From NCBI GenBank assembly GCA_903881545.1, contig CAIRTQ010000033.1:1267-65266 (forward strand): 64,000 bases of DNA, in the 5' to 3' direction. Positions 9,258 to 62,709 of this stretch are shown in pieces. This DNA is from an uncultured Elusimicrobia bacterium (GTDB lineage Bacteria; Elusimicrobiota; Elusimicrobia; UBA1565; UBA9628). Position numbers and translations under genes: made by a program. Below the pieces are notes generated by a model. The model did no database searches, was not told where the DNA came from, and saw only the letters and a program-made list of their open reading frames with translations. Each line of letters opens with the position of its first letter. Position 1 is the first letter of the stretch.

Positions 9258-9535
9258 GGAGTTTATGGTAGGATATGTTGTGGGTTAAGTAAGCCAACTC
9301 ACGACGACAAGCTGCGTGCCACGAGCAGAAGGCCCCACTCCATGCTTCCGTTGATCCTGGTATTCGCGTATCGTGATCATGCCAGATTCATCGACCATCG
9401 AAACCTGCGTTTCTCCGTCGGGCCCCAGTGCCATTTCATGCTGAATTCACCCGCTCGATTGGGAGAAGACCCTCTTCCTGCCCTTTTCAGCCCTGGCATG
9501 CCTTGCGGCGCCTGCGGAGTCGGGGGGATTCCGCA

Positions 9536-22486: not shown

Positions 22487-22510
22487 CGGCCGCCGGCATT
22501 GCCGGCCCTT

Positions 22511-24898: not shown

Positions 24899-26674
24899 TT
24901 GTTTGAGTCATTGGCAAAGTCCAGGGTGTTCTGCGTCGCGCCATGGCGCAACCTGTTCGTGCGCGAGGACGGGTTGGCGTCCGTGTGTTGCATGGCAACG
25001 GACCAAACCAAGAATTCCCTCTGGCGCATGAGCCTGCAGGAGACATGGAATTCTCCCGAGATCAAGCAGATGCGTCTCAACATGCTGCAGGGGAGAAAGA
25101 GCCTGCCCTGCATGAAATGCTATGAGGTCGAGGCCGCCGGTGCGGAAAGTCTGCGCACGGAGCAAAACAGGACGGTGGAAAGCCTTGCGGATGTCGCGGC
25201 GCGCACGGGATGCGAGGGGCAGGTCGATCGTGCCCATTTAATCTCCCTGGAATTGAATCTATCGAACACTTGCAATTATCGCTGCCGTTACTGTAATCCA
25301 CGGCGCAGCACCGCATGGCATAAGGACTTCATGGCCGTCTCCAACAATAATTGGGGATACCCTGCGACATTGACGGCTACGGATGATTTCCCAGGGCTGT
25401 ATGAACAGATCCGCGCCATGTTGTCGCACCTGCAAAGGATCAGCTTCGCGGGCGGAGAGCCTTTGATATCGAATTGGCAACATGAGATCCTCGGAATCTT
25501 GCTGGCCGGGGGAAGGCCGGATGTCTCGATCAGCTACACCACGAATTTTTCTAACTTGGTCCATCAGGGGACCGATATCTTGGAATTGTGGAAACGATTC
25601 CGGCATGTCTCCGTCATGGCGAGTCTCGATGCTCCGGAAAAGCGCGGGGAGTATATTCGTAAAGGGCAAGAATGGGGCCAGGTGATAAGGAACCGGGAAC
25701 GCTTGATGGAGGCTTGCCCCCATGTGGTCTTCGGCATTGCACCCACGCTCTCGGCAATGAATGCGTTCTGTCTGCCCGATTTCCATCGCGACTGGCTGGA
25801 AAAAGGATATCTCGGGCCCAATAGCATTTGCATCGGGACGCTGTTCGTGCCTTTGGAGTACCGCATCCAGATTCTGCCGGACCATCTGAAGCGCAAGGCA
25901 GTCGAGCGGTATCAAGAACATGCCGCCTATCTCCACCATAGATTTGGCAAGCTCGCGGAACGTGACATATCTCGGTTCGAGGATGCCGTCCGCTTCATGC
26001 GGGATAAGGATTTGAGTTGCCTCATCGGCCGTTTCAGGAAGAAGACTCGGGAGTTGGACGAAATCAGGAAGGAAAGATTCGAGGAGGTGTTCCCGGAACT
26101 TGCGGAGCTTATGGATGAGCCATGGGCATCAGGAGCAGGTCCGGCTCGGGGCCGGCCCGGTGCTGATGCGAGTTCAGAGGATCCACCCGTGCCGACGGCG
26201 CAACAGACGCAGAGAGCGGTGACAAGTTACAGGGATCTGCTGAGTCTGGATACGCTGGAGCCGTTTCAGGTGGCCGAAACCCACTTGGAGATAGGGGCTT
26301 TGTATAAGCGGATAGGCCGTCTTGATGATGCGGTGCAGGAATTCCTTCAGGTGATCAAGGTGCATGCTTCGCCCGCGGAATCATGGATGGACCTGTGGGG
26401 CGAGGTCGGGTTCCTATGCGCGGAGATGGGGAGAATCAAGGAAGCGGAATCTGGGTTCCAAGACTTGTTATCCCGGGAGGGGCGCACCCTTGAGCAGACG
26501 GCCGGGGCGCGCATCGGACTGGGGCGGCTGTACCAGTGCGCTGGCCGTGCCCTAGACGCTCTGCCGGAATATCAGAAGGTCTTAGAGGCGGATGACTCCC
26601 CTGCCGGCGCCAAGGCGCAGGCCTCTCGCGAGATGGACCGTGTTCTCTTGGAAATGGGATTGGCCTTACATTAA
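24899..26674 (+). CDS. N-terminal-twitch radical SAM protein with C-terminal TPR domain
   Basis: FCVAPW...CC...CMKC, SNTCNYRCRYC, FAGGEPL; clear paralog of 22511-23782 plus about 150 aa of TPR-like tail. Confidence 0.9.
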   Translation: MFESLAKSRVFCVAPWRNLFVREDGLASVCCMATDQTKNSLWRMSLQETWNSPEIKQMRLNMLQGRKSLPCMKCYEVEAAGAESLRTEQNRTVESLADVAARTGCEGQVDRAHLISLELNLSNTCNYRCRYCNPRRSTAWHKDFMAVSNNNWGYPATLTATDDFPGLYEQIRAMLSHLQRISFAGGEPLISNWQHEILGILLAGGRPDVSISYTTNFSNLVHQGTDILELWKRFRHVSVMASLDAPEKRGEYIRKGQEWGQVIRNRERLMEACPHVVFGIAPTLSAMNAFCLPDFHRDWLEKGYLGPNSICIGTLFVPLEYRIQILPDHLKRKAVERYQEHAAYLHHRFGKLAERDISRFEDAVRFMRDKDLSCLIGRFRKKTRELDEIRKERFEEVFPELAELMDEPWASGAGPARGRPGADASSEDPPVPTAQQTQRAVTSYRDLLSLDTLEPFQVAETHLEIGALYKRIGRLDDAVQEFLQVIKVHASPAESWMDLWGEVGFLCAEMGRIKEAESGFQDLLSREGRTLEQTAGARIGLGRLYQCAGRALDALPEYQKVLEADDSPAGAKAQASREMDRVLLEMGLALH

Positions 26675-45362: not shown

Positions 45363-46511
45363 CTACGGCCGGCGCAGGGCTCTATGGTGCTCCTGGACGA
45401 TTTGTCCGTCGCACTTGTGCCGATGATCCACGTGCGCTTCCCAATCATTGATGCTGGTGGCATTATGGCGTTGACAGGTCCCTAGGCAGCCGCCACCAGC
45501 CCGCAAGCTGCGTCGGATGGCGCGGTAGGCGGGTCCGTTCCAAATTTCCGCGAAGCTCTTATCGGCCAGCGATTCCTTGAAAGATCCAATCAAATCGCAG
45601 GGTAGTATCCTGCCTTCGGGATCCACCACCACCTGGTGCCACGGCTCGTTGCACCGGGCCGGCGTCCGGGCCGGTGCCGGCCCTTCACCGAACTTTTGCG
45701 GGAGGCTGATCTCCATGCCCACCTCCTGTGCCACGCTGCGCGCCTCGTCTATGGCGCGGTTGGCCAAGTCCTGCTTGAAGTAGAGCGAAAGGTATTTCTG
45801 TGCTGCTTCGCAGATGAAGAAGTAGGTGGCCAGTACCCTGTCCGCCCCCAGTTCCTTGGCCAAGCGCACGAAATCCGGCAGCTTGTCCGCATTGAGCGTG
45901 GTCATCACGAATTTGAAGTGCACCCGTACTTGGTCCGTGCCTTGGCGCATCTCCATGAGTTGTTTGATGTTCTTCATGACTCGCTCAAAGGACCAGTACC
46001 TCATCATGAGTTCGTGCGTCGACTGGTCGGGCGCGTGGAGGGACAGCTGGAGCGTGTAGCGGCTTGCCGAGTTCACTATCAGGTCGCATTTCTCATGCGT
46101 GAGATACGAGGCGTTGGTGGCGATGCGTTTCTCTACATGCGGGAATCGGCCATTGAGATAGCCCAAGAGCGCGGGCGCCTCGGATAGCCCCAATACCTCG
46201 CCCGAACCAGAGAAGGTCAGCGTCGCCGCGCGTTGGAGGACCGGCGTCATCGATGAGTCGAATCGAGCCAGCCAGTCGTCCAACCGGAACGACTCGAAGC
46301 CGTCGCCTTGGGAGCAGAACACGCAGCCAGCGTTGCAGGGCGCATGGATCTGAAGACGCACTGTCTGCGGCGTGCTGGCCAAGATGATGCGGCCGGCTTC
46401 GTGCTCCTGCCGGTTGAGATCCACATTCTCCGTTTGGAGCTGTTCGAGCCGGCGACGCCGCCGGCCGGCGGCGGGCTCGGGCGATCGGGCGGCGGAGGGC
46501 ATGGCCTTCAT
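45363..46511 (-). CDS. Radical SAM/SPASM protein (family B), close paralog of 27559-28692
   Basis: ENVDLNRQE...STP, CNAGCVFC, SGSGE, SRYTLQLSLHA, QKYLSLYFK, CNEPW...PCD. Confidence 0.9.
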   Translation of the reverse strand: MKAMPSAARSPEPAAGRRRRRLEQLQTENVDLNRQEHEAGRIILASTPQTVRLQIHAPCNAGCVFCSQGDGFESFRLDDWLARFDSSMTPVLQRAATLTFSGSGEVLGLSEAPALLGYLNGRFPHVEKRIATNASYLTHEKCDLIVNSASRYTLQLSLHAPDQSTHELMMRYWSFERVMKNIKQLMEMRQGTDQVRVHFKFVMTTLNADKLPDFVRLAKELGADRVLATYFFICEAAQKYLSLYFKQDLANRAIDEARSVAQEVGMEISLPQKFGEGPAPARTPARCNEPWHQVVVDPEGRILPCDLIGSFKESLADKSFAEIWNGPAYRAIRRSLRAGGGCLGTCQRHNATSINDWEAHVDHRHKCDGQIVQEHHRALRRP

Positions 46512-48475
46512 CGCGCGCAGAGCGGGGCGGGTTGAGCCGCTTCGCCCCCGGCAGTCTCGGATTTGACCAGGCTCATCGCCAGGCGCAGACGTTTGGCCAG
46601 CAGGTGCAGAGTGTTCGGGTCCGTCGCCCGTTCGCCGGCCCAGAAGATGTCGAAATGATCCCCACTCCATTCGATGCGGGCCTTTTCCCCGGTCATGGCT
46701 TTGAGGAACGAGGCTGCTCGAAACAGGAAACGCTCGAGGCTCTGCGGCGCTTGACGGGAGCCCGCCAAGAACTCATCCCAGGTTAAGCCCGCGTCCAAGC
46801 GGCTTCGGAGTCCCTCCCAGACCGCCGCTGGGTCTGCCTTGCCGGCGGCCGCAATCCGGTCGGCCTTGGCCAGGGCCCGGGCGGCGTTCCGGAAGCTCTC
46901 CAGATGCGGGAGAGCCCGGATTAGATGCTTGAGCGTCGGCCCATGGTAAAGGTCCAACTCCAGGTATTCCAAGTAATTCTGCAGGGCCGCTAAGGGCCGG
47001 CCTGCGAAATGGTGGTACGCCGCTAGGTTGGAGAGATGATCCAGGTCAAGGGCGCCGTTGACCCCCTTGTAAGCGTCTATGCCCAGAGTGATGGCCAGGG
47101 ACCGGAACTTTTTGTAGCGTTCCAAACGCACCGGATAGGTATTGGTCCCATCCTGGGACTCCCAGTAGAGATTGTGCGTTGACTCTTCGGAGCGCTGGCG
47201 AATTCCCAACTCCTCCTGGTGGTCGATCAGATAGCTGTGCGCCTCCAGGCTTGTGAAGGTGGCGCTGGCGTAGACCCGGTCCAAGTTGCTTCGGTTGCGG
47301 CGCAGGAAATCCAGAGTCATCTGCGCGTCTTCCTCCGTCTCCCCGGGAAAGCCGAACATGAAGTTGCCGGTCACGATGATGCCGGCATCATGGGTGTCCC
47401 GCAACACCCGTTCGGCCACGTCGGGAGAGTAGTTTTTGTTCATGGCCTTGAGCACGCGCTCCGAGCCGCTCTCGATTCCGTAGATGATGTCGTGGCAGTT
47501 GGCGGCGCGTAGATCTTTCAGGACTTCCAGCGTCATCTCCGGGCGTATGACCGCGTTGATCTTCCATCCGATCAGATCGTTCTTCCACCGGTCTTCGGCC
47601 ACGGCTGCGCTTACGAGCCGACTAAACTTCTGCAGGGCCCGGACGTCGCCGTTGGCTGTAATGTCGTAGAACTCCCTATGGCGACGGCTAGGGAACAGGC
47701 GCAGGTTGTGCATGACCTCCGCGAAGATGCGGTCTCCGCCCATATGCGCATAGCCGGGCCAGAAGGAGTGCGCGCTGCAGAACCGGCACTGCCAGACGCA
47801 CCCTCGGCTGGCCGCGATCGGGATCCGCTCCGGGTCGGTATAGAGCTCCATGGGAAATCCCGTGAAGTCCGCGAATGGGATATCGTCTAGATTGCGTACC
47901 GGCACAGCCGCGCCGGAGGTGAACGGTGCTCCGTCGCGCCAAACCCAGGCCCCCGGCAGCGGTTCTAGCTCGCCCGTGCTGTCAAAGCGCTTCAATATCT
48001 GGGGGAATACCACGTCGCCCGCGCCTTGCACCACCATGTCCACGCAGGGCTCTCCGAGTAGGGCTCTGATCTTGTTACCAAAATAGAAATAGGGCCCCCC
48101 AAGGATAATCTTGACCTTGGGATCGGCGGCCTTGAGGCGCCGCGCCAGCTCCAGCGCGGCCAGATGGGAGCCGCTTTGCACAGAAATGCCAATGACGCGG
48201 GCGCCGGTCTTGAGGATGTCCTCCAAGAAGCGCTCCACCTGCTGAGAATTATCCTGGAAGAAGGTGGCAACGAACGCCGGCTGGTTCCAGAAATGGAACT
48301 GCTCCCAGACCCAGAGGCTTTCATATTTCTTCACCCGTTCCTTCCAGAGCAGGATGTTGAGGTCAAACACCGCCGGCTCGAAACCAGCCGCGCGAGCGCA
48401 ACCCGCCAATTGGGCTAAGCCCAAGGGTGGGTCTGTGATGCCCCAGACTGGAGGCTGGATCAAGGCGACTTTCAT
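46508..48475 (-). CDS. Cobalamin-dependent radical SAM protein with helical C-terminal extension
   Basis: MKVALIQPP..PPLGLAQL, LGGP, SRGCVWQCRFC, YGIESGS, FMFGFPGET, WESQDGTNT. Confidence 0.93.
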   Translation of the reverse strand: MKVALIQPPVWGITDPPLGLAQLAGCARAAGFEPAVFDLNILLWKERVKKYESLWVWEQFHFWNQPAFVATFFQDNSQQVERFLEDILKTGARVIGISVQSGSHLAALELARRLKAADPKVKIILGGPYFYFGNKIRALLGEPCVDMVVQGAGDVVFPQILKRFDSTGELEPLPGAWVWRDGAPFTSGAAVPVRNLDDIPFADFTGFPMELYTDPERIPIAASRGCVWQCRFCSAHSFWPGYAHMGGDRIFAEVMHNLRLFPSRRHREFYDITANGDVRALQKFSRLVSAAVAEDRWKNDLIGWKINAVIRPEMTLEVLKDLRAANCHDIIYGIESGSERVLKAMNKNYSPDVAERVLRDTHDAGIIVTGNFMFGFPGETEEDAQMTLDFLRRNRSNLDRVYASATFTSLEAHSYLIDHQEELGIRQRSEESTHNLYWESQDGTNTYPVRLERYKKFRSLAITLGIDAYKGVNGALDLDHLSNLAAYHHFAGRPLAALQNYLEYLELDLYHGPTLKHLIRALPHLESFRNAARALAKADRIAAAGKADPAAVWEGLRSRLDAGLTWDEFLAGSRQAPQSLERFLFRAASFLKAMTGEKARIEWSGDHFDIFWAGERATDPNTLHLLAKRLRLAMSLVKSETAGGEAAQPAPLCAR

Positions 48476-49830
48476 GAGTAGCTCCCGTGCGGCGGAAATT
48501 TAAAATCGGCTCGGCCGATGGACTGGCAGCGTTCGCAAACATGATCAGAATCGGCCTTCACTCCGACTTGGCCGCGGGCGAACCGGCGGACATGGCGCCG
48601 CGCGGCGCGGTAGCGCGAGCCGTTCCAGAGGGCGCGCCAGCCTTTTCGGGTGAACACGCCGAAATCGTCCGACTGGTCCTCTACACTACAGCAGGGCGAA
48701 GCCGAGCCGTCTGGATTGAGCGCCAGTCCCGCCCAGGGCCACTTGCACAGAGGCCGGGGCCCCGACGGAGCCTCCTGCTGATCACGGCCGCAGCTCTCGC
48801 TGCGCTCGGCTAGGTGCGCCGTTCTTTTGAGCGCGAAACCCAGGTCTGCTGGACGCCGGGTTCGGCGCAAGACCTCGAGCCAATAGGATGCGCGCCGCAA
48901 GTGGCGGGCCTGAAAGCGCCGCGCATGGAGTACGACTGAGGGCGCGCCCGGCTTTACATGCGTGCATTCGCGGGCTCGGCTAAGCTCTTCTGCAGGTGGC
49001 TCAGCGGCGGGCATAGGATAGATCTGGTAGCGCGGGTCGCGCGCCATCCATTCCCAAAGATAGCCCTTTTCGTTGGGTAGATACGGAGCCACCAGGCTCG
49101 TTTGGTCCGCCCCGCAGGCGCGCGCGAACTCCTCGACCCGATCGGCTTCATGCTCGTTGTGCCGGAAGACCAGAAACTGCCAGATGATCCAGGGCTTCTT
49201 GCACCCCAGCGCCTGGCGCTTCTCCACTAATGTGCGCAGGTTCCGCAAAACCCGGTCGAAATCTCCGCCTGCTCGGTAGCGTCCGTAGGTTTCGGGGGAG
49301 AGTCCATCCACGGATAGGCTCAGGATGTCCAAGCCCGAGCGGACCAGGCGGTCGATGGTCTCTTCGCTGGCGTCGTTAAAATTGGCGTCCAGCTTGACTT
49401 CGATGCCGTAGCTCTTGGTCAGCGCGATCATCTCCGGAAGCTGTTTATTGAGTAAGGACTCGCCCCAGTTCATGATGTCCAGGTGGATGGCGGATGGTCC
49501 GACTTCTTTTAGGATGGCCTTGAAGAAATTTATATCCATGGTGCCCTTGTTGCGGACGCCGCGGTTGGCTCCGGTCGGACAGAAAGGGCAATGGAGTTGG
49601 CACAGGTTCGATGGATCCAAGGTGAGCCAATAGGGCCGGCCGCCCCAGAGGCTCTGGCTGCCCCGTGCCATCAGGAATTCCACCCAAAGATAGTTGCCTA
49701 GTTTGAGGTAGCGCCCTTGCCGCCAGAGGTTGCTCGACACGGCCCAGTCGCTCAAGGGGCAGAGTCGCGCTTGGAGCCGGCGCCACCGGCTGGGATTCTT
49801 CTGCGTCCGCGTCATATCCAAGGCCACCAT
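48472..49830 (-). CDS. Radical SAM/SPASM protein
   Basis: DPSNLCQLHCPFC, NWGE, SVDG, WQFLVFRHNEHE, CKWPW...PCC...WNG...CERC. Confidence 0.9.
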   Translation of the reverse strand: MVALDMTRTQKNPSRWRRLQARLCPLSDWAVSSNLWRQGRYLKLGNYLWVEFLMARGSQSLWGGRPYWLTLDPSNLCQLHCPFCPTGANRGVRNKGTMDINFFKAILKEVGPSAIHLDIMNWGESLLNKQLPEMIALTKSYGIEVKLDANFNDASEETIDRLVRSGLDILSLSVDGLSPETYGRYRAGGDFDRVLRNLRTLVEKRQALGCKKPWIIWQFLVFRHNEHEADRVEEFARACGADQTSLVAPYLPNEKGYLWEWMARDPRYQIYPMPAAEPPAEELSRARECTHVKPGAPSVVLHARRFQARHLRRASYWLEVLRRTRRPADLGFALKRTAHLAERSESCGRDQQEAPSGPRPLCKWPWAGLALNPDGSASPCCSVEDQSDDFGVFTRKGWRALWNGSRYRAARRHVRRFARGQVGVKADSDHVCERCQSIGRADFKFPPHGSYS

Positions 49831-49834: not shown

Positions 49835-50575
49835 TCATAGCGTCGACGCGTTCAGGGCGTCGATGCGGGCCTGGTTCAGCCTCGTGGGAGGGATGGATGA
49901 GACGCAATCCGTCATCCTGACCCAGCCGTGGTCCAAGGCGCACACTGCTGACTCCGTTTGCCCTTCGAACCGGCAACCCGTCAAGTCGACCAAGGACCAG
50001 CCCGAGGCGGAGCAGCCTTGCTCGCCGCCGCGCAGGAGGCTGCGTTCCAAACGCACCTGGGAGCCTTCACAACAGATCGCCCCCCAACGCTCCGCCGCGA
50101 TCTCGCCGGAGATGAAGCGCACGCGCGCCAGGCCCATGGCCCAGAGGCCCTTTTCGCTGTCCCGCATCAAGCAGCCCACGCAATCGATCCGGGCATCGTC
50201 GAGAGCCTGTAGCGAAGTCTCGCGCGCCCCAGCGATGCGGACCTGCCGCAGCCGGCCGCGCCCTTGGCCCAGGAAGCAGAGGCCGCCCCAAGGTTCTTCC
50301 GGCGTGCCCAAAGAGATCGAAGCCCCAACAGCACCCAATATCTCAAGCCGGCCCTGCACCACGATGTCGCAGAGCTCGCGGCGGGTCGTCTCGATCGGCC
50401 AACCTTCTGGCGCGCTGCGGAATACCGCGCATGACCAAGCTGGCTTCGGAGCGAACCGCACTTTCGTCCCGGCGTGGATGCGTAACAACTTCCCCTGCGG
50501 GATTAGGAGGTCTCCATCCACGAGGACTTCTCCAGACCATTCCGTGTCGGCGGTGAGTGCCCCGTGCCAGCCCAT
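49835..50575 (-). CDS. Right-handed parallel beta-helix protein
   Basis: WSGEVLVDGDLLIPQGKLLRIHAGTKV, VQGRL, PWGG, then ~22-aa beta-coil repeats; paralogous to the C-terminal half of 56884-59214. Confidence 0.7.
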   Translation of the reverse strand: MGWHGALTADTEWSGEVLVDGDLLIPQGKLLRIHAGTKVRFAPKPAWSCAVFRSAPEGWPIETTRRELCDIVVQGRLEILGAVGASISLGTPEEPWGGLCFLGQGRGRLRQVRIAGARETSLQALDDARIDCVGCLMRDSEKGLWAMGLARVRFISGEIAAERWGAICCEGSQVRLERSLLRGGEQGCSASGWSLVDLTGCRFEGQTESAVCALDHGWVRMTDCVSSIPPTRLNQARIDALNASTL

Positions 50576-53500
50576 TTAGGCCTCCACCGCCAGCTTGCGG
50601 GCCGCCGCCAGGATGGCGGCGCGAGCTTGGGGGCGGTTGGTGATATGGCAAGATAAGTCATCCACGTTGTAGCCCGCGTAGCGTGCGCAGCGGCGGCACC
50701 AGGGATGCGGCTTGCCTTGCGCCATGCTGCAGCGCAGGCTGCGATAGAAAGGGGAATTCCATATGGCCCCGATTTCCGAATCTTTGATGTTCCCGATGTG
50801 CTCGCCCCAGCGACAGCAAGGCAGCACCGAGCCCTGAAGTTCCACATAGATGTGCTGCCAGGGCTCAGTGCAGAGCGACTGCGCGGCCGCGCCGCCGCCA
50901 AACAGGGGGGGCAGGTCCACGCGGAAGGGCCGGTCCGGGGCGCGTTGGCGCAATTGATCTGCCGTCCGGGCAGCTGTCTGCAGGGCCGCGTTGGCCTGGC
51001 CCTGATGGAAGAAGCAGGAGAGCGGGAGTTGCTTGGGCGTGAAGACCTCCACATGCAGGCCGCGCACGCTTTGCGCGCCCAAGTCCCAGGCCAGACGGAT
51101 GAAGTCGGGGAGGTCCGCAATGTTGCGGCTATTGAGCACGTTGACGAGTTCCAGGTGCAGCCGGCCGCTCGCTTGGCTGCGGTCGCGCCATTTGGATAAG
51201 CTCCGCAAGTTGTCGATAATCTCCTGGAAACGGCCTTTGAGACCGGTCAGTTCTTGATGCAGGCCAGCGCGGGAAGAGTGCAAGGAGACTTGAACCGCGT
51301 AGCGTCCCTGCAACAGGCGTTCCACCACCGAGGGCCGCAGGGGTGTTCCGTTGGTGGTCAATATTTTTTCGGTCTCGGGCAAGGATCTGTTGATGTAATC
51401 AAGGAACGCTTCGGCTTTCGGCATGAGCAAGAGCTCCCCGAAGCCGGTAAAGGTGATCTTCTGCGCGTTGCGCAGGAAAGAGCCCATCCGGACCTCGAAG
51501 AAATCTCGGTAGGTCTCCAAGGTGAATCGGGGATAATCGCCTTCGGGACAGAAGATGCAGCGGGCGTTGCAGGCCTGGTGCGCGCCGAGGGTCACCAGCA
51601 CCGGCGTCGAGCGCAGGCGCTGCTCCCCCGCCGCTGTTTCGCGCTGGTTGAGGACCATGTTGAATCCGCGCGGAGAGAACTCTTGCGGCGCCGGCGGAAA
51701 CGCCGGCCCGCGCGCTGGCCGGCCGGCCTTATCGTAGCAACGGCGCAGGGCTTCCCGGAGCGTTTCATCTTGGGATTCTAGGCGCCAGGAGCGGCGATAG
51801 CAGAGGATGGCGCGGGGCAGGTCCGCCTCCCTCTCGTAGTACGCGCCCAGCAGAAGCCACTTGTCCGGCTTGCTACGGAGCACTCCTGAAGTCTCAGGCA
51901 GGCCCAAGGCCAGGGCCAGGCGGCAAAATTCTTCATAGCGGCGGAAGCGTTCCGGATAGTCGTTGCGACCGCCATCTGATTTCCAGTAAAGGTGATGCTC
52001 CGCTCCGGTGATGCCAAACTCCTTCGGATGGTTGTAAAGCCGCGTGTTCTTGTCGATGACGCAGAACGATTGGCTGGCCAGGACCGAATCCACGAACGGC
52101 CGCGCTCGCTTGAGAAGGTCTAGCGTCCGGCTGAAGTCCCGCTTGGTCTCACCCGGGATGCCGAACATGACGTTGATCTGCGCCTTGATCCCTGCCGCGT
52201 GAGCGGCGCGCAATGCGCGCAATGCCTGGGCGTTGGTGAAGCGCTTGTTCATGGCCGCGCGCACTTTGGGCGATCCGGATTCGATGCCAAAGCCTAGCCA
52301 GCGGCAGCCCGCGCGCGCCATCTTGGCCAGCAGCCGCTCATCCATGCCGGGCACCACGATGGCCTGGCCTTCCCAGGTCACGGGCAGGCCTTGCGCGATG
52401 ACCAGGTCGCAGAAGCGCTCGAGCTCGCGCAATCTGCCGTTGAGCAATGAGCCGATGAAATAGAAGTGGTTGACCTGCGGATATAGCTGCATCTGATGGC
52501 TGATCTCAGCGAAGATTCGTTCCCCGCTCATGGAGCGGAATCGGGTCCAGAACTGCCACTCGCTGCAAAAATGGCAGGAGCGGGCGCAGCCGCGGCTGTC
52601 CATGATCTCCAGGCGCCGCGGGTTCCGGTAGCGGCCCTCGCGCATTTGCGCAGTGAAGTCGGAGTAGTCCGGGAAGGGTAGGCGGTCCAGGTCCATGATG
52701 GGTGCGCGGTCGCCGCCGTCCACGATGCCGGAAGGCCCGCGGGCCACCAGTCCGGGCAGTCCCAAAATGGATTTCCCAGCGCGAAGCTGGTCCAATAGCT
52801 CGCGCAAGGTCTCCTCACCTTCGCCGACGGCTACCGCGTCCACGCGCGGGTCAAGCGCTAGGTCTTGGCCCCGTTGTTCCCGCGCGCAGCGCGGCCCGCC
52901 GAAGACCACCAGCCGGGACGGATCGGCGTGCTTGATCCGCCCCGCGATTTCGAGGCTGGCGAGTACCGAAGTCGTGTGGGTCGTGAATCCGATCACCTTG
53001 GCGCCGCTGGCCAGGATGCGGTTGACGCAAGAGTTCACCGCGCTGTCCTGGGATTCCATGAGACGCCCCACCAAGGCGGGATTCTCCCAAAATGAATAGA
53101 GGTCTTTGTCGTCCCAGACGGCCCGTTGCCCGGCCGCGGCATGATAGAGCTCGTTGTTGAGATCGAAGCAGGCAGCCTCGTGGCCATTCTGCCGCGCATA
53201 GGCGGCTAAGGCGGCCAGGGAGAAAGGGGGGCATTCCTGGCCCCAGCCCGGACACTGCACCAAGGCGACTTGGGCGGTACGCTTCTTCGGCGTGGGCGCG
53301 GCAACGGCTGAATCGTCTGATGCCACACGGAGGGGAGTATCCTTCTTGCAGCCTAAGGCCACGATCCGGTCCAGGACTGGATTGGCGGTACAGAGCAGCC
53401 AGCAGTGGCAGCGGCCGCGCGCGACATTGTCCCTTTCCTGGCGCGCTCGAGGCGACTGCCAGACTTCGTCGAACGGGGCCTCACGCACACTGCCGACGGT

Positions 53501-54484
53501 ACGTTGTTTGTTGACCGGGCAGAAGAACAGGCTGCCCTCCGGGTCCAGCATGGCGTAGCGCTGACCAGCCAGGCAATCCGGGAAGAACCGTCGCGGCATC
53601 CGAATGTACTCCTTGAGGTAATGCCAGTAGAGGATCCGGCTCAACAGCCCGACGGATTCGGATTCGCGTCCTTGCAGCAGACGGGGCAAGATGCCTTCGC
53701 GCCGGCATATGTCGTCCATGACCAGATCAATCTGGCCGGTGATCGCCGCGATCTGTGCCGGTTTCCAGAGGAAGGCCGGAGCCTCGGGAACCCCCGTATG
53801 GTTGACCGCCATCTGCGCCCCGAACCAAACGCCCTGCTCCGTCGCGAAGCGATAGGCCGGCCATAGTTGCCGATAGTTGTGTGGAGTGATGGTTAAATTG
53901 AAACTGAATGTAATGTCAGGGAATTCTCGACGCAACATTCCCATCGATTCGACCAGCCCTGCGAAGGCCCCGGAGCGGCCGCGGATCAGGTCATGCGCGC
54001 CCCCCACGCCGTCCAAGGAAGACCCCAGCCATAGCCGTTGAACTCCGGCCGCGCGCAGCTGCGTCAAGCGGCGGCGCAACAGCGTGGGATCGCCGAAATG
54101 GGAAAGCACTCCCAGGGAAGCCTTGGGGAAGCGCCGGCAGAGCAGGGCCGCGATCTCAGGCAGGTCCTGGCGCAGGCAGGGTTCGCCTCCGGTCAGGACG
54201 ATCGTCTCTACGCCGTCCAGCGTCCTTGCCTCGCCGAGGATGTGCTCCAATTCGGCGGCACCCAATTCTCGGCCGGTCGCCGCAGGTTCGGCGCGATGCC
54301 GGCGCCAGTGATGGCACATGAGGCAGCGCATATCGCAGCGCCGGGTCAGTTCCAGATGCAGTTCTCGGATGGGAGATGGGATGCTCCCCTCGTCTTTCAG
54401 CCGCGCCTCGCCGCGCCGGGCGATTTCCGCCAAGAGGCTCTCGGTCCAGCGCAGTGCGTCCAAGGCCAAGGCGCGTCGGCTCAT
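50576..54484 (-). CDS. Triple radical SAM fusion: rSAM/SPASM + B12-rSAM + family-B rSAM/SPASM
   Basis: One open frame with CDMRCLMC (~54314-54337), a B12-binding domain plus CARSCHFC (~52565-52588), and CNARCIFC (~51548-51571). The first and third domains each have a SPASM-type tail. Confidence 0.9.
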   Translation of the reverse strand: MSRRALALDALRWTESLLAEIARRGEARLKDEGSIPSPIRELHLELTRRCDMRCLMCHHWRRHRAEPAATGRELGAAELEHILGEARTLDGVETIVLTGGEPCLRQDLPEIAALLCRRFPKASLGVLSHFGDPTLLRRRLTQLRAAGVQRLWLGSSLDGVGGAHDLIRGRSGAFAGLVESMGMLRREFPDITFSFNLTITPHNYRQLWPAYRFATEQGVWFGAQMAVNHTGVPEAPAFLWKPAQIAAITGQIDLVMDDICRREGILPRLLQGRESESVGLLSRILYWHYLKEYIRMPRRFFPDCLAGQRYAMLDPEGSLFFCPVNKQRTVGSVREAPFDEVWQSPRARQERDNVARGRCHCWLLCTANPVLDRIVALGCKKDTPLRVASDDSAVAAPTPKKRTAQVALVQCPGWGQECPPFSLAALAAYARQNGHEAACFDLNNELYHAAAGQRAVWDDKDLYSFWENPALVGRLMESQDSAVNSCVNRILASGAKVIGFTTHTTSVLASLEIAGRIKHADPSRLVVFGGPRCAREQRGQDLALDPRVDAVAVGEGEETLRELLDQLRAGKSILGLPGLVARGPSGIVDGGDRAPIMDLDRLPFPDYSDFTAQMREGRYRNPRRLEIMDSRGCARSCHFCSEWQFWTRFRSMSGERIFAEISHQMQLYPQVNHFYFIGSLLNGRLRELERFCDLVIAQGLPVTWEGQAIVVPGMDERLLAKMARAGCRWLGFGIESGSPKVRAAMNKRFTNAQALRALRAAHAAGIKAQINVMFGIPGETKRDFSRTLDLLKRARPFVDSVLASQSFCVIDKNTRLYNHPKEFGITGAEHHLYWKSDGGRNDYPERFRRYEEFCRLALALGLPETSGVLRSKPDKWLLLGAYYEREADLPRAILCYRRSWRLESQDETLREALRRCYDKAGRPARGPAFPPAPQEFSPRGFNMVLNQRETAAGEQRLRSTPVLVTLGAHQACNARCIFCPEGDYPRFTLETYRDFFEVRMGSFLRNAQKITFTGFGELLLMPKAEAFLDYINRSLPETEKILTTNGTPLRPSVVERLLQGRYAVQVSLHSSRAGLHQELTGLKGRFQEIIDNLRSLSKWRDRSQASGRLHLELVNVLNSRNIADLPDFIRLAWDLGAQSVRGLHVEVFTPKQLPLSCFFHQGQANAALQTAARTADQLRQRAPDRPFRVDLPPLFGGGAAAQSLCTEPWQHIYVELQGSVLPCCRWGEHIGNIKDSEIGAIWNSPFYRSLRCSMAQGKPHPWCRRCARYAGYNVDDLSCHITNRPQARAAILAAARKLAVEA

Positions 54485-55647
54485 GCGGGACCTCTGCGGA
54501 AGAGCTGTTCGAGCGCGGATGTCGGCCCCAGGCACCACTTGCGCAGCAGAAGGTTCATGTCGGCCTCCGCATCCCGCGCCGCGGGCGGCGGTTCGGTAGG
54601 CGGAAAGGTCAGGATATCGGTGGCGATGAGCAGGCGCTGGTTGAGTTGGCGCAGACGCAGGCAATAGTCGAATACCGCGGCGGCCCAGGTCTGGTAGCGT
54701 TCATCGAGGCCGCCGGCCAGGGCCGCGGCGTTGCGCCGCAGCATCCAGCAAGACGAATCCAGGTAATGCGCGCATTCGCGGTGGCTCCGCCCGGCGCTCA
54801 GACGAGCCGAGGCCAATTGTCTCTGAGAGCCAGCGCGGGATGGCTGGCCCCGCACCGCGCCCACCGCGGCCAGGGGGGCCTCTCCTTCCAGATATTCTTT
54901 CATGCGCTCCAGGCTCGCGGGGATCAGACCGGTGCCGCCCCGCACCGACAGCACGCATCGGTAACGCGCGCGCTGGAGTGCCGCGTTCCAGCCGACGATG
55001 CCGCCGCGTCCCCGGGGCACGGTGATCCATTCGCTGGGGAAGGGCAGCCGGTCCAGGCGCCTACGCAGATTCTGGTCTGAGCCCAGGACCAGGACGCTGA
55101 TGCCGTCGCGGCCCGCGTCATCGAATTCCCGGGAGGGGCGCGGCTGGGCCGGCAAGAAGCGGCCTCCCAGTTTTTCGCAGGCCTGAACTGCGGTCCGAGC
55201 CATGACCCAGTCGTGCGGCTGTGTGCCCTGGTGGTCTGGCCATGGGTCGGAGAGCAGGACCAGGTCCGAAAGCTGGTTCATCCCCGGAATCTGCTCGCGC
55301 CAAGCCGGCGAAAAATTCTCACGGCGCAGGAGGCAAACGCGCGGAGTCGTGGGGGACCATCCGGCCACGCGATGTAGGTTCTCGATACTGGCCGCCTCGC
55401 CGACGGCCAGTATGACCTCGACCCGCGCGTCGAAAAGGGCTTCTTTGACGTGCTCGAAGAAATCCCTTTGCGCGCGAGGCGGGAAACGCATCCCGCCACG
55501 GCAGAGTCCGGGGCCGCCCGGGTCTAGTGCCAGCGCGACGCCCCACCGGGCGCCGAGCTCGTGCAGGAGCTCCGAGGTCCGCTGGCCGTCGCCGGTCTTC
55601 AATTCGTTGAGCCACCCCGGCACCAGCGCCAGCACCCTATACGACAT
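54481..55647 (-). CDS. Degenerate glycosyltransferase-like protein (GT4-like N-terminus + GT2-like C-terminus)
   Basis: GWNAALQRA, CWMLRR, GGLDERY...DYCLRL are GT2-like but the DxD position reads VLSVRGG; AGGAG RBS. Confidence 0.6.
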   Translation of the reverse strand: MSYRVLALVPGWLNELKTGDGQRTSELLHELGARWGVALALDPGGPGLCRGGMRFPPRAQRDFFEHVKEALFDARVEVILAVGEAASIENLHRVAGWSPTTPRVCLLRRENFSPAWREQIPGMNQLSDLVLLSDPWPDHQGTQPHDWVMARTAVQACEKLGGRFLPAQPRPSREFDDAGRDGISVLVLGSDQNLRRRLDRLPFPSEWITVPRGRGGIVGWNAALQRARYRCVLSVRGGTGLIPASLERMKEYLEGEAPLAAVGAVRGQPSRAGSQRQLASARLSAGRSHRECAHYLDSSCWMLRRNAAALAGGLDERYQTWAAAVFDYCLRLRQLNQRLLIATDILTFPPTEPPPAARDAEADMNLLLRKWCLGPTSALEQLFRRGPA

Positions 55648-56887
55648 CGGCTTTCTCCTGAGGCGAGCGCGCCAGCACTTCATCGTACACCGCGCCCAGG
55701 CGCGGGGCGAGCTGCGACCAATCATAGCGGCGGCGCACCAGCTCCACCCCCCGGGCTCCGAGTTCGCGGCGCAGAGGGGCAGAGTCGAGCAGGCGCAGTA
55801 CCTGAGCGGCGAAGAGCGCCGGGGAGTCGGCTGAAAGGACGTCGCGGTCGGGCGTGAGTTCGAGGCCGCGTAGGGAACGCCGCGTTGCCACCACCGGCAG
55901 GCCCGAGGCCAGAGCCTCCAGAATCTTGCCCTTGATGCCCTCTCCCAAGCGTACAGGCGCCACAAACACGGTGGCTTGCTCCAGGTACGGCTTGACGTCC
56001 GGGACCGTCCCCGTGACCGTGACGCCGGGGATATCCCGGGCCAAGTTAAGCACCGCATTGGTGGGGCTTGAGCCCACGGCGAAGAACCGCGCCTGAGGCC
56101 GCACTTTTAGGATCGCGGGCCAGATCTTCCGGCAGAAAAAGACCACCGCGTCTTCGTTGGGGTAGTGGGGGTAGTGGCCTACGTAAAGCAGGGTGGGCGC
56201 CGCGCCGGTGGGGGGCTCTGGGGCCGGGCGGAAATGCGTCGTGTCCACGCCCGTAGGGACCACTTGGATTTTGTGGGCCGCGATGACTTTGGAAAGGCGG
56301 TGATGGTCCGTGGGAGTCATGACCACGACCCGGTCGAACCAAGTCCCGGCCTGGCGCACGAATGCCACGCGGCGGCGCCATTGCCGGATCTGTAGGAATT
56401 TGCGCCAGCCCACCATCTCCCGGAAGTAGGAGCCGAAGAACGATATGGAACCGGCGTCGTGCTGAGTCCAGATGCGGGGCACTCCGGCGAGCTGGCGAGC
56501 GTAGAGCGCCGTGAGGTCGAACTCGGCGTGCACCAGGTCCGGCCGCTCTTCTGCGACGATCTCCGCTACCCTCTGAGCCGTCTGCGGGTCGAAAAAGCGG
56601 GCGACGTCATCGGGGAGGGCCAAACGGTCGACGCGAAGCGAGCGGGGTTCCGGAGGCAGCGTGAGCCAATGGATGCGCTCGAAGATGGGCCGCAAGTAGT
56701 GGTGCTCCCACAGGAGCTCTTGCGCCGTTTGATGCGCGTCGCGCGGGATGTCGCGCGGGAGGAAGGTGGCCAGGGAGAAACGGAACCGTTGGCCCAGAAG
56801 CTGGCACAAGGTGTGGATGCGCTTGCATCCACCATCGAAGGGGTAGGGCGGGGAAGGCGTCAAAAGCAGCACATGCGGCTTCATCAT
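55637..56887 (-). CDS. Glycosyltransferase family 4
   Basis: PPYPFDGG, VPTGVD, YVGHY.HYPN.DA, VFVAPVRLGEGIKGKILEALASGLPVV, YDW. Confidence 0.92.
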   Translation of the reverse strand: MMKPHVLLLTPSPPYPFDGGCKRIHTLCQLLGQRFRFSLATFLPRDIPRDAHQTAQELLWEHHYLRPIFERIHWLTLPPEPRSLRVDRLALPDDVARFFDPQTAQRVAEIVAEERPDLVHAEFDLTALYARQLAGVPRIWTQHDAGSISFFGSYFREMVGWRKFLQIRQWRRRVAFVRQAGTWFDRVVVMTPTDHHRLSKVIAAHKIQVVPTGVDTTHFRPAPEPPTGAAPTLLYVGHYPHYPNEDAVVFFCRKIWPAILKVRPQARFFAVGSSPTNAVLNLARDIPGVTVTGTVPDVKPYLEQATVFVAPVRLGEGIKGKILEALASGLPVVATRRSLRGLELTPDRDVLSADSPALFAAQVLRLLDSAPLRRELGARGVELVRRRYDWSQLAPRLGAVYDEVLARSPQEKADVV

Positions 56888-59214
56888 GCGCTCCGCTGCA
56901 CCGAGTCGTAGCAAGGATGATATTCGCGGTGAAAATCCTTGCCGTTGCCCATATAATCGTTGTGTGACAGCCGAGTCCGGCAGCGGTGGTCGGTCCATAC
57001 GGCCGTATCCCGGCAGCTGGAAAAGGTATTGCCTGTCGCGCGCAGGCGCGATCTTCGTAATGCGAGTACGCCGTTCTCATTGTCGGTGAACACCGCTCCG
57101 TCCATTCGGATGCGGCAATCATCCTCGGCCATGATGGCGGTCTTGGCTTGGCGGCTGAACGATATCCCCCGTAGGCGCGCCCGCGAGGAATGGCTGCAGC
57201 GGATCGCCTCGCGGTTATCCTGCCAGGAGCCACCCATGGCCTCGATCTGCGAGGAATTCTGAGTCCATACGCCGGTGCCGTTGCCTTCGATTCGGACCCC
57301 GCAAAGGAGGGCCCGCGACCGTTGCAGAGTCTCCATGCCCACGTTGTTGCGTTCCAAGCGGCAGCCCCTGAGGCGTAGACGCGCCCGGCCCGAGGCAAAG
57401 ATTGCGGACTGGCCAGCGTGATCGAGCCAACGGCTCGAACGGCCGAGGAAGGTCGAGTGACCGAGCATCGTCGCCGCTGAGCCGCGACAGCGGGAATAGG
57501 TCCCGCAGAAGTCGGATACGACGGCGCAACCTTCAGTGAGAATGTCCGTGTTGCAATCGCAGGCCCGGCAGCGCCGCAGGCGCACGCGGGCATCGTCGTG
57601 CGCCCAGACTGCGGCCTTGCTGGATTCAGTGAAGGAGCAGTCATGCAAGACAGCGGAGGCGCCTCCTCCCCAAGCGGTGGCGCCCTGTCCGCCTTGGAAA
57701 TCACAATGGCGAAACTCGGCCCGGCAGAAGTCCACGCCCAGAGCGGCAAAGTCGGCAGCGGGATCGAAACGGGCGTGGCGGATGCTGGCCCGGGAGCGGC
57801 CGAGCAGTACGATGCCGCCCCAGGGGGCCCCAGTGAAGTGCACTTTGTGGCCCGGTTCGCCGGCGACATCCAACTCTCCATAGACCATTAGCGCGCAGCG
57901 GCCGCGGCGGGGGAGCTGAGCCCTGGTCCCAAAAGCCAACCGGTCTGCCGCCCAGCCCGCAGCGGCTGTTGTTTCCGACCGGACCAGCGTCCCCGGCAAG
58001 ATGCTCAGCCTGCATCCGGCCGCAATCACCATGGTTTCGGAAAGAGTGACCTCACCTTCCCAAACGATGTCGCGGCCGCGATGCGGAGCGGGACATCCAG
58101 CGTCCAGCCGTAGCCATGTGCCTTCAATCCGAGCCCGCAAGGCGCGGCAACGGCGCGGGAAGGCCAAGCCACATGCGCGATACGCTACAGTAAGGAATCT
58201 AAGCGTATGCCGGATGGCGGGCCGCCGCAGAGCAATCCATGCTTCTTTGGCCCGGTCGCGGATCCAGGCGGCGGTCTGGAGGGTGCGGTCGCGCAGAAAG
58301 CGATAGGCGTCGCGTAGAGCAATGCAGGCATCGAATATCCGGTCTCGGGTCCAGGCGCCGGACTGGAGACAGGCGTCCCGCAGGGACCGGTAGGCATCGC
58401 GCAGAATAATGCAGGCATCGAATATCCGGTCTCGGAGCCAAGCCCGGGTCTTCAGAAAACTGTCGCGCAGGAAACGGCAGGCATCAATGGTGCGGTCGCG
58501 AGTCCAGGCGCAGGTCTGAAGAAAACGGTCGCGCAGGAAGCGGTAGGCGTCGCGCAGGGCCAGTCCGGCGTCAATGATGCGGTCGCGGGTCCAGGCGGCG
58601 GTCTGGAGGGTGCGGTCGCGCAGGAAATGGCATGCATCAATGATGCGGTCGCGAGTCCAGGCGCAGGTCTGAAGAAAACGGTCGCGCAGAAAGCGGTAGG
58701 CGTCACGTAGTGCTAGTCCGGCGTCGATGATGCGGTCGCGGGTCCAGGCGGCGGTCTTCAGGCAGAACCCCCGGATTATTTCGGCGCATAGCAATCCAAG
58801 CACGACCGTTGAGACAATCCCTATGCCGCAGTGGCAGAGCCTACGGAATGGGCCTTGCAGGCTTATCCAGCGCCCTTGTCCACGCCGGAAGGACTCGACG
58901 CGGCCCGCGATGCATGAGCTGGGAACCGCCTTGTCCAGGATGATGGACCGATCTCCCTTCGTCCAAAAGACATGACCACCCGTACGGTCGGCCTTCCAAA
59001 CGATGCGATGCGCCACGAAATTGCGGCGCTCTATATCGACATAGACGACGATGTCTCCCAGGAGCAATTGGTTGGGAGCGATGCGGCGAAAGCGCAGGGC
59101 GTCTCCGGATCGCAATAGAAACCGCATGGAGTTTCCGGAGAACGGCATCTCTCGCTCCGCGTAGTGGCCACGCGGGTCTTGTGGCTCATCCGAATATATA
59201 GGAGCGGTGGTCAT
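56884..59214 (-). CDS. Multidomain protein: S26 signal-peptidase-like domain + TM helix + amphipathic repeat + beta-helix (NosD-like)
   Basis: GNSM...GD...AHRIV...TKGD (Ser/His type S26), a hydrophobic helix, WTRDR repeats, then beta-helix coils (NNVG, NGTG, NREA, NENG). Confidence 0.75.
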   Translation of the reverse strand: MTTAPIYSDEPQDPRGHYAEREMPFSGNSMRFLLRSGDALRFRRIAPNQLLLGDIVVYVDIERRNFVAHRIVWKADRTGGHVFWTKGDRSIILDKAVPSSCIAGRVESFRRGQGRWISLQGPFRRLCHCGIGIVSTVVLGLLCAEIIRGFCLKTAAWTRDRIIDAGLALRDAYRFLRDRFLQTCAWTRDRIIDACHFLRDRTLQTAAWTRDRIIDAGLALRDAYRFLRDRFLQTCAWTRDRTIDACRFLRDSFLKTRAWLRDRIFDACIILRDAYRSLRDACLQSGAWTRDRIFDACIALRDAYRFLRDRTLQTAAWIRDRAKEAWIALRRPAIRHTLRFLTVAYRACGLAFPRRCRALRARIEGTWLRLDAGCPAPHRGRDIVWEGEVTLSETMVIAAGCRLSILPGTLVRSETTAAAGWAADRLAFGTRAQLPRRGRCALMVYGELDVAGEPGHKVHFTGAPWGGIVLLGRSRASIRHARFDPAADFAALGVDFCRAEFRHCDFQGGQGATAWGGGASAVLHDCSFTESSKAAVWAHDDARVRLRRCRACDCNTDILTEGCAVVSDFCGTYSRCRGSAATMLGHSTFLGRSSRWLDHAGQSAIFASGRARLRLRGCRLERNNVGMETLQRSRALLCGVRIEGNGTGVWTQNSSQIEAMGGSWQDNREAIRCSHSSRARLRGISFSRQAKTAIMAEDDCRIRMDGAVFTDNENGVLALRRSRLRATGNTFSSCRDTAVWTDHRCRTRLSHNDYMGNGKDFHREYHPCYDSVQRSA
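58222..58746 (-). repeat. Intragenic tandem repeat, units of 87/66/87/66/87/87 bp plus a partial unit (29/22-aa WTRDR... units)
   Basis: The first Trp codon is at 58746 and the seventh at 58266 (480 bp apart). Units 1 and 3 are identical in amino-acid sequence (WTRDRIIDAGLALRDAYRFLRDRFLQTCA). Confidence 0.92.
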
Positions 59215-59845: not shown

Positions 59846-60029
59846 GTTGAAGTCTCCTTAAATGAATTTAAATTATTATACAAATTAGCAGGATTCTGCG
59901 CCAAGCGTAGACTTGTCGCTACACGAACATCGTGGAAACGCCCAACTTGGTGGTCAATTTGAATTTCTTCAAGATTGGTTTTTTATAGATTTTCTTTGGC
60001 TCGGGTTTCTTCTTCATCTGGCGCTCCTT

Positions 60030-62708: not shown

Positions 62709-62709
62709 T

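Follow-up and report, generated by a model that had tools for sequence, protein, structure and literature searches.

Radical S-adenosylmethionine (SAM) enzymes (rSAM) are nearly always studied as single-domain catalysts, and the well-known fused case, FbiC, has two such domains. A gene from an uncultured freshwater Elusimicrobiota bacterium raises the question of whether three rSAM domains of different classes can be joined in one chain, and on which substrate such a chain would act. The gene lies at 50576..54484 on the minus strand of a stretch of 64,000 nucleotides (contig C33:1267-65266 of the source genome, G000), referred to here as the window, and encodes the protein P0001, whose modules we name M1, M2 and M3 from the N-terminus. 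Here, we present evidence that this tri-fusion is real and that its modules recur together in related bacteria, and we argue that they probably act on a surface glycan.

A single open frame encodes three radical SAM modules

An earlier note on this DNA had described an uninterrupted frame of about 1300 residues carrying three rSAM motifs, and this description is borne out. The minus-strand stop-to-stop frame 50576..54664 is open in an open reading frame (ORF) scan, start and stop are where the note had placed them, translation from the ATG at 54484 yields 1302 residues (about 146 kDa, 37 cysteines), and the quoted motif letters are found in three CX3CX2C motifs beginning at residues 50, 633 and 972. 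Pfam recognizes three Radical_SAM stretches in P0001 (PF04055, 159.2 bits against a cut-off of 29.5), two SPASM stretches (PF13186, 74 bits against 21.5) and a B12-binding domain at residues 485-564 (PF02310, 39.8 bits against 32.1), and no module reaches the cut-off of a curated NCBIfam family. The module junctions, expected at about 53300 and 51700, match positions 53273-53338 (M1/M2) and near 51680-51710 (M2/M3), giving the following layout:

50576..54484, minus strand: tri-module radical SAM gene (open frame, domain matches, 1307-residue orthologue in genome G002)
53339..54484, minus strand: module M1, residues 1-382, with an N-terminal helix, an rSAM core and a C-terminal auxiliary-cluster domain
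53273..53338, minus strand: M1-M2 linker, residues ~383-404, rich in Lys, Pro and Ala, of low model confidence
51710..53272, minus strand: module M2, residues ~405-925, with a B12-binding-like domain, an rSAM core and a C-terminal region ending in a pair of tetratricopeptide repeats (TPR)
~51695-51865, minus strand: TPR pair of M2, from TPR_2 matches in homologues and the family profile
50579..51679, minus strand: module M3, residues ~936-1302, with an rSAM core and a twitch/SPASM-type cysteine cluster

Family alignments were made for M2 (A1), M3 (A2) and M1 (A3), and in all of them the cysteines of the clusters show little or no variation. M1 carries its CX3CX2C motif at residues 50-57, a GGE motif at 99-101 and conserved C-terminal cysteines at 304, 322, 359, 361 and 365; its AlphaFold2 (AF2) model has a mean confidence (pLDDT) of 91.7, dropping below 50 in the linker residues 383-395, and its best NCBIfam matches are AhbD/NirJ/MoaA-like and below cut-off. 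In M2, an N-terminal B12-binding domain precedes the rSAM core, as in class-B rSAM enzymes, and the cysteines of the CX3CX2C motif at residues 633-640 are invariant; the match to TIGR03975 (rSAM_ocin_1) scores 164.5 bits over residues 480-826, under the cut-off of 281.85. The TPR-like helix pair that the note had seen behind this core is genuine, as TPR_2 scores in homologues and positions 474-530 of the family profile match designed TPR proteins.

M3 (pLDDT 91.2) has its CX3CX2C motif at residues 972-979 and a Pfam SPASM match at 1205-1266, with invariant cysteines at 1205, 1223, 1224, 1263 and 1266 in the spacing C-x17-C(C)...C-x2-C. Its best NCBIfam matches, N_Twi_rSAM and rSAM_Geo_metal, are below cut-off; against N_Twi_rSAM (NF033640) it scores 112.7 bits where 170 are needed, with its Cys-rich domain C-terminal and not N-terminal, whereas the neighbouring genes at 22499.. 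and 24899.. pass this model at 356 and 337 bits. A full SPASM domain has a seven-cysteine pattern binding two auxiliary clusters. As only about five cysteines are conserved in each C-terminal domain, the sequences suggest that M1 and M3 carry one auxiliary cluster each and are of the twitch type rather than full SPASM. From their intact and conserved motifs, all three modules are expected to bind a [4Fe-4S] cluster of their own together with SAM. A complex prediction between M1 (A3) and M3 (A2) scored 0.00 in a run without controls, a value that counts neither for nor against docking.

The tri-fusion is a genuine gene

Among 30 relatives searched, a genome of another species of the same genus (G002) matches P0001 over residues 8-1299 with 74% identity and without stops. 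The orthologue is a 1307-residue ATG-to-TGA frame with all three motifs (70, 78 and 74% identity in M1, M2 and M3, respectively); an apparent N-terminal extension of 380 residues was rejected as an out-of-frame reading of the upstream gene. In a third genome, G001, M1 runs into M2 up to the contig end. The M1/M2 linker measures 26 residues in G000, 14 in G001 and 9 in G002, and three relatives with separate genes (L020, L023, L024) have, at the linker site, an ATGA shared by the stop of M1 and the start of M2. The varying linker lengths, together with the ATGA overlap in the split relatives, argue for an old fusion with an evolving linker rather than a sequencing slip. A one-residue variant of the protein (P0002) is also found on 4 further contigs.

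Both junctions were inspected in Logan contigs from four lake-water runs (X1-X4, of which X1 is possibly the source). The M1/M2 junction is bridged in frame by contigs of X1, X3 and X4, that of X3 carrying an in-frame GGG insertion behind 53225, in a homopolymer run, which would add one residue just past the linker; the X2 contig breaks at this junction. The M2/M3 boundary is bridged by contigs of X1, X2 and X3. Some of these data weigh against an intact gene. One X2 contig (depth 6.7) reads an additional G behind 51544, within a homopolymer run; if real, it would shift the frame of M3 just past its CX3CX2C motif. This place is otherwise covered by X1 alone (depth 2.6), without the extra base. 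Moreover, all four runs come from one study and reach a depth of 3-7x, so that the variant could be an error or a true allele.

That an error of assembly or base calling has joined neighbouring genes, or that the gene is decaying and its modules no longer all function, is nevertheless highly improbable and close to refuted: the M1/M2 overlap of the split relatives measures 4 nt, so that one indel could join the frames, and X2 shows both a break and an extra base at low depth, but the independently assembled G002 has the same fusion with another linker length, G001 is contiguous across M1-M2, the variant protein recurs on other contigs, three runs bridge the linker in frame, and every Fe-S cysteine and the GGE motif are intact. 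The earlier note would have abandoned the fusion had its junctions held stops or all homologues been split; the G002 orthologue is intact. Taken together, these results establish the tri-fusion as a genuine gene and not an assembly artefact.

The three-module form is rare, whereas its M2-M3 part is common

A homologue search over 5.8 billion proteins gave 88 non-self matches that were classified. M2 and M3 align in one piece in 67 of them (36-60% identity, 851-1143 residues); the remainder comprise 3 N-truncated proteins, 12 in which M2 is joined to a different rSAM-SPASM module, 2 of M1-like plus M3-like composition and 4 others. The source names of the matches point to Elusimicrobiota, Omnitrophota and one Patescibacteria record. 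These numbers make the two-module protein, a B12-rSAM-TPR part followed by a twitch-rSAM, a large and uncurated family.

The three-module form was seen in G000, G001 and G002 only. Eight other genomes of the genus were searched, of which G008 has the split form, G005 has M1 only and four gave no match at E<=1e-40. Within G000, a custom hidden Markov model finds 145 ORFs with an rSAM core, of which the tri-fusion alone has three cores and two others have two; with one three-core ORF among 145, chance is not an issue. Among 242 relatives fetched, P0060, P0100 and P0182 are further triple-core proteins with full motifs in different arrangements. The triple-rSAM architecture is thus rare, not unique. 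The note's view that such an arrangement is unusual for rSAM enzymes therefore holds in part only, given the common fusions of a B12-rSAM with a twitch-rSAM and the three further triple-core proteins.

Further fused proteins were encountered along the way. G000 itself encodes an 863-residue protein with B12-binding, two rSAM and SPASM domains (C132:17-2605, plus strand), a further fusion of the M2-M3 type, and a 934-residue protein with two rSAM cores (C41:6417-9218, minus strand). Three loci from records labelled Nitrospirota and 'Planctomycetales' (L075, L081, L084) hold ORFs of ~1080-1190 residues with two M2-like B12-rSAM modules in tandem.

M1, M2 and M3 appear to form a conserved cassette

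A scan with one genome per species yielded 295 relatives, of which 66 loci were kept and module-mapped. The M1 family was gathered by a representative search; a search with residues 1-400 by shared words returned its own cluster only. The arrangements found are listed below (a slash separates genes, a hyphen joins fused modules, and GT stands for glycosyltransferase):

Elusimicrobiota, M1 / M2-M3 / beta-helix gene: L020, L023, L024, L034, L035 and L049; also genomes G016 and G021
Elusimicrobiota, M1 ... M2 / M3: L022, L025, L029, L031, L033, L039 and L045
Elusimicrobiota, M1 about 2 kb from M2-M3: L021, L026 and L027
Omnitrophota, giant GT...-M1-M3 gene, then M2 fused to another rSAM-SPASM: 11 loci
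Omnitrophota, GT...-M1 / M3 / M2x: 7 loci

Part of the Omnitrophota records carry the label Planctomycetes. A GT1-M1 fusion also occurs among the arrangements, and in most loci a second, more distant pair of B12-rSAM and twitch-rSAM follows, fused or split; the window's version is formed by the genes at 46508..48475 and 45363..46670. A 1255-residue M1-M2 open frame in G019 was dropped, as a stop-to-stop scan gives separate ORFs with a beta-helix gene between them.

In the M2 tree, an Elusimicrobiota clade stands apart from an Omnitrophota clade, and the tri-fusions of G000 and G002 form one clade with a support of 100. The fused M2-M3 state requires at least 3 changes on this tree, a count that may be affected by truncations or errors among the genes scored as 'split'. 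When syntenic genes fuse and separate repeatedly, this is a classical sign that their enzymes work together. The earlier note's reading of the polypeptide as a Rosetta-stone fusion gains from these data, as a second species keeps the fusion and the modules, syntenic in two phyla, are combined there in five or more ways. Judged from sequence and gene order, M1, M2 and M3 thus appear to be a conserved functional cassette across Elusimicrobiota and Omnitrophota, whose members may act sequentially on one substrate as an assembly line, as the note had proposed.

The cassette keeps company with glycosyltransferases and glycan exporters

In the window, GT1 is followed by up525, the tri-fusion and a small beta-helix protein. 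The stop codon of the upstream ORF shares an ATGA with the start of the tri-fusion, and the ATG of the downstream gene stands directly behind the tri-fusion's TAA, placing the tri-fusion in a tightly packed same-strand string:

55637..56998, minus strand: GT4-family (Glyco_trans_1_4, Pfam) glycosyltransferase, 'GT1', two genes upstream of the tri-fusion in the same operon-like string
54481..56058, minus strand: up525, an ORF of uncertain true start whose call overlaps the glycosyltransferase gene
49835..50575, minus strand: dn246, 246 residues, a weak right-handed beta-helix (Beta_helix E 0.011) directly after the tri-fusion stop
48472..49830, minus strand: rSAM-SPASM gene (Pfam), in the rest of the string
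46508..48475, minus strand: B12-rSAM, M2 paralogue (Pfam; 37% identity to M2)
45363..46670, minus strand: twitch-rSAM, M3 paralogue (Pfam; 34% identity to M3)

Across the relatives, the GT1 (GT4-type) domain is a regular companion of M1. It lies directly N-terminal of the rSAM domain in 11 of 14 long M1-family proteins (the other three being one with a methyltransferase, one triple rSAM and one showing rSAM only), and a GT1 homologue is found within 3 kb upstream on the same strand in 24 of 31 M1 loci, mostly within 200 nt or fused; among the seven exceptions, some are cut by the locus end or have an up525 gene in between. P0092 (2189 residues) combines GT2-GT2-GT1-M1like-M3like in one chain. 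Directly upstream of the giant GT-M1-M3 gene, L054 and L038 encode an ABC-2 permease and, bearing a Wzt_C domain (E 2.6e-33 and 7e-36), an ABC ATPase. Wzm/Wzt_C genes occupy this place in L044 and L046 as well, and hence in each of the four loci that extend far enough in this direction. An exporter made of Wzm and a Wzt bearing Wzt_C is the mark of O-antigen-type pathways that depend on an ABC transporter and complete the whole glycan in the cytoplasm, where oxygen-sensitive, SAM-dependent enzymes can act. A bioRxiv preprint on long Omnitrophota proteins, in the part available to us, places GT group 1 and radical SAM in one 'sugar metabolism' Pfam module (10.64898/2026.06.07.730766).

The window itself holds five GT2 genes, GT1, three GT-C-like membrane proteins, Wzm/Wzt-like ABC genes and beta-helix proteins. 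Its GT1 resembles TIGR03087 (191.9 bits, under the cut-off of 316.65). Pfam and NCBIfam searches gave no match for up525, which is conserved in G001 and G002 at 56-58% identity and whose language-model features lie near GT2/GT1 clusters (0.92), a lead only; it is possibly a divergent glycosyltransferase. The dn246 product resembles part of the 776-residue beta-helix/NosD protein and is itself kept after M3 in relatives. Stand-alone paralogues of the second and third modules, as listed in the earlier note, do exist in the window, at 39236.. (39%) and 46508.. for M2 and at 27559.. (33%) and 45363.. for M3. An Rfam search over the whole window returned tRNA only, with no cobalamin or SAM riboswitch.

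Elsewhere in the window, two GT2-PqqD genes and one GT2 gene (60030-63918, minus strand) are MftF-like at about 158 bits, the cut-off being 280, and a Lys-rich ORF of 32 residues (59919..60017, minus strand) lies directly downstream of a GT2-PqqD fusion gene. In a hunt for precursor peptides, this ORF and an adjoining one of 151 residues had no match in any fetched locus, and Pfam found nothing in either of them. Three large membrane proteins at 2703-8648 have weak GT-C matches (ALG10-like, E 0.097; Dpy19, 1.2e-7; PMT_2, 5.5e-6), with a tRNA gene (6631-6704) lying among them, and are possible protein or lipid glycosyltransferases at the island edge.

A surface glycan is the most probable substrate

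Based on these observations, we consider it probable that the three enzymes form a conserved cassette which tailors a surface glycan in the cytoplasm. The strongest lead to this reading is the company that the cassette keeps, namely glycosyltransferases and Wzm/Wzt exporters. In addition, the best single-sequence matches in the PDB are sugar-modifying rSAM enzymes for every module: BlsE for M1, AprD4 for M2 (4.3e-11, followed by MgmA/QCMT 9ccb at 8.5e-9 and TokK at 1.3e-8) and BtrN for M3 (E 3.9e-7). BtrN is also the best PDB match of the M3 family profile (E 2e-22), and the M2 family profile matches OxsB at 1e-16.

Several observations count against this assignment. The M1 family profile is nearest to the peptide-modifying enzymes SkfB (3.5e-26) and CteB (1.6e-17), ahead of BlsE, with PqqE also among its matches. 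The top NCBIfam matches of M2, TIGR03975 and ApyD, are families of C-methyltransferases acting on peptides that ribosomes synthesize and that are modified post-translationally (RiPPs), though below cut-off. Foldseek searches with the M1 and M3 models return peptide-modifying (SuiB, SkfB, CteB) and sugar-modifying (DesII, BlsE) enzymes mixed at template-modelling (TM) scores of 0.5-0.6, and so do not discriminate the substrate class. Within the window, the Wzt-like ATPase is a short protein without Wzt_C, encoded at a distance of about 39 kb, and two GT2 genes carry PqqD, a peptide-recognition domain. The genome is full of fusions of TPR arrays to rSAM cores, which suggests protein partners. 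Finally, neither CobS (PF02654) nor CobD/CbiB (PF03186) turned up in the 93%-complete G000, which is not proof of absence and leaves cobalamin use by M2 unproven; the 37 matches to B12-binding domains in the same genome suggest corrinoid scavenging or cobalamin-independent 'B12' domains. AprD4 works without cobalamin.

Both the class of substrate and the single reactions, as well as the order of these and any channelling, are inferred here, the reaction of each module being proposed by likeness to the nearest solved enzymes. According to this model, the tri-fusion would have arisen in one genus by loss of the ATGA overlap between an M1 gene and a fused M2-M3 gene, or alternatively by loss of two such boundaries, leaving flexible linkers behind. 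The cassette would work with the GT4-family glycosyltransferase and GT2 enzymes in a Wzm/Wzt ABC-transporter-dependent glycan pathway, each module cleaving SAM at its own [4Fe-4S] cluster in the cytoplasm and abstracting hydrogen from a sugar of the nascent, probably lipid-linked, glycan or of a nucleotide-sugar precursor. M3 may act as a BtrN-type oxidase or epimerase of a sugar carbon; M2 may be a C-methylase at an unactivated carbon if cobalamin is bound, or else an AprD4-like diol dehydratase; and M1 may add a further redox, decarboxylation or cross-linking step. The fusion would fix a 1:1:1 stoichiometry and hold oxygen-sensitive steps close together.

A more far-reaching version of this proposal, which we advance tentatively and rate below an even chance, makes the triad the core of a new polysaccharide-tailoring machinery, with three rSAM enzymes of twitch, B12 and twitch type hard-wired to GT4/GT2 polymerases and Wzm/Wzt for multi-step radical sugar chemistry (for example, oxidation or epimerization combined with C-methylation or deoxygenation at unactivated carbons), and with the ~145 rSAM genes of the genome serving largely cell-surface diversification. 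The triad may then create the terminal residue that Wzt_C reads for export, and the tri-fusion would be a self-contained 'radical glycan editor'.

Other substrates are less probable

The main rival, unlikely yet the best placed of the alternatives, sees in the modules maturases of peptides or proteins, either RiPP-like or with a secreted or surface protein as their target. In this case M2 would C-methylate side chains in the manner of PoyC, M1 and M3 would form thioether or carbon-carbon cross-links or epimerize residues, and the glycosyltransferases would then glycosylate the same peptide or protein, following a mycofactocin-like or glycoprotein logic. The SkfB- and CteB-like profile of M1 and the NCBIfam matches of M2 given above speak for it, but all NCBIfam RiPP matches are far under cut-off, and the models of M1 and M3 show a single N-terminal helix each (~30 residues in M1) and no domain of the size of a RiPP recognition element (RRE). 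It can further draw on the window's two MftF-like GT2-PqqD fusions, on the small Lys-rich ORF directly after one of them, on the TPR pair in M2 together with dozens of TPR-array-rSAM genes in the genome, and on the PMT_2/Dpy19-like GT-C proteins, which are enzymes of the protein-glycosylation type. The conserved core of the loci (GT1, M1, M2, M3 and the beta-helix gene), however, is without a small conserved ORF, and fusion to a polymerase-like GT2-GT2-GT1 protein beside Wzm/Wzt_C is a hallmark of polysaccharide rather than peptide pathways.

Modification of a lipid or cofactor (a hopanoid, a membrane-spanning lipid or a tetrapyrrole-like compound) is more doubtful still. In groundwater Elusimicrobia, suites of rSAM genes, as many as 13 in number and in part with B12-binding domains, stand by NifHDK paralogues, and tetrapyrrole reduction is predicted for them in the part of the bioRxiv article available (Meheust et al., 10.1101/765248). 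A B12-rSAM at 9428..10984 of the window is most like HpnJ and BchE, below cut-off, and class-B rSAM enzymes include lipid methylases, to judge from NCBIfam family names. Set against this, no nitrogenase-like domain and none of a tetrapyrrole or hopanoid pathway was found in the 52 window ORFs that were scanned or in the 54 ORFs of four related loci, and the consistent partners of the cassette are glycosyltransferases and Wzm/Wzt.

The source genome is rich in radical SAM genes

G000, at 2.94 Mb, has at least 150 domain matches to PF04055. The window holds 27 rSAM genes with 29 domains, and 100 of the 145 rSAM ORFs of the genome lie on contigs with at least three. About a dozen rSAM genes of ~300 residues stand in a row at 15760-37819, their best NCBIfam matches being to the STM4011 family and viperin-like proteins (58-82 bits against 200, below cut-off), with the N_Twi_rSAM genes 22499..23782 and 24899..26674 interspersed.

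Elsewhere in the genome, tandem arrays of 3-7 large ORFs (600-1200 residues) occur on contigs C22, C126, C39, C31, C2, C62, C117 and C135 (L086, L087). In all six of the array ORFs scanned, a long TPR array is followed by a SPASM/twitch domain and then an N_Twi_rSAM-like core. These arrays look like a fast-diversifying paralogue family.

Significance

The domain families and two-domain rSAM fusions such as FbiC are already known. New are the conserved fusion of three classes, the M1/M2/M3 cassette across phyla and the physical fusion of such modules to glycosyltransferases beside O-antigen-type exporters; neither the cassette nor a triple-rSAM protein is described in the full-text literature searched, outside of which most subscription journals lie. 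Three rSAM classes sit in one chain, with five or more predicted Fe-S clusters and perhaps cobalamin, and naturally occurring split and fused forms allow comparison. We know of no glycan or O-antigen structure for Elusimicrobiota, Omnitrophota or Nitrospirota. The cassette, with the glycosyltransferases and exporters coupled to it, implies, as a testable hypothesis, that surface polysaccharides are tailored by radical chemistry in Elusimicrobiota, Omnitrophota and some Nitrospirota. If true, this would represent a new enzyme logic for glycobiology and would help to explain why about 5% of the genes in these small genomes are radical SAM genes, and the naturally fused protein offers a convenient single construct for biochemistry.

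Comparison with known systems

Like the tri-fusion, FbiC (FO synthase, the CofG-CofH fusion of coenzyme F420 biosynthesis) has more than one rSAM domain per chain, corresponds to separate genes elsewhere and makes one product, according to the available part of PMC11917521. Similarly, the modules of the tri-fusion also occur as separate adjacent genes, in the 66 loci and their relatives. FbiC differs in having two domains, no B12-binding or SPASM/twitch domain and a known substrate, and neither CofG nor CofH appears in the list of the 25 best NCBIfam matches for the tri-fusion (no direct comparison was run).

The GT-M1-M3 relatives also fit the GT group 1 and radical SAM content of the long Omnitrophota proteins (10.64898/2026.06.07.730766); the available part of that preprint makes a remark on domain statistics and names no three-module cassette, Elusimicrobiota fusions or function.

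At the level of single modules, M3 resembles BtrN (2-deoxy-scyllo-inosamine dehydrogenase, a twitch rSAM, PDB 4m7s/4m7t) in that an rSAM core is followed by a short Cys-rich auxiliary-cluster domain, and the substrate of BtrN is carbohydrate-like. Unlike BtrN, M3 is about 100 residues longer and has an extra conserved cysteine pair (CC 1223-1224), and in the Foldseek search BtrN ranks 47th (TM 0.42), behind SuiB, DesII and SkfB. M2 shares its N-terminal domain of the B12-binding type and its rSAM core with the class-B enzymes AprD4, MgmA/QCMT, TokK and OxsB, and differs from them by its C-terminal TPR pair, its usual fusion to a twitch rSAM and its position below every NCBIfam cut-off. M1 is built like the sactipeptide-type maturases SkfB, its top Foldseek match, and CteB, with an rSAM core and a C-terminal auxiliary-cluster domain; in contrast to these, a single helix of ~30 residues and no RRE precedes the core, and a GT4 glycosyltransferase is fused or adjacent in most loci.

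Regarding the pathway as a whole, E. coli O9a is an ABC-transporter-dependent O-antigen system in which the multidomain polymerase/terminator proteins WbdA and WbdD work with Wzm/Wzt. The Wzt-like protein of the window, lacking Wzt_C, departs from this type. In the relatives, however, polyproteins with several glycosyltransferase domains stand beside Wzm and a Wzt with Wzt_C, and modifying domains are likewise attached to the glycosyltransferases, with the difference that the attached modifiers are radical SAM enzymes in place of a kinase/methyltransferase.

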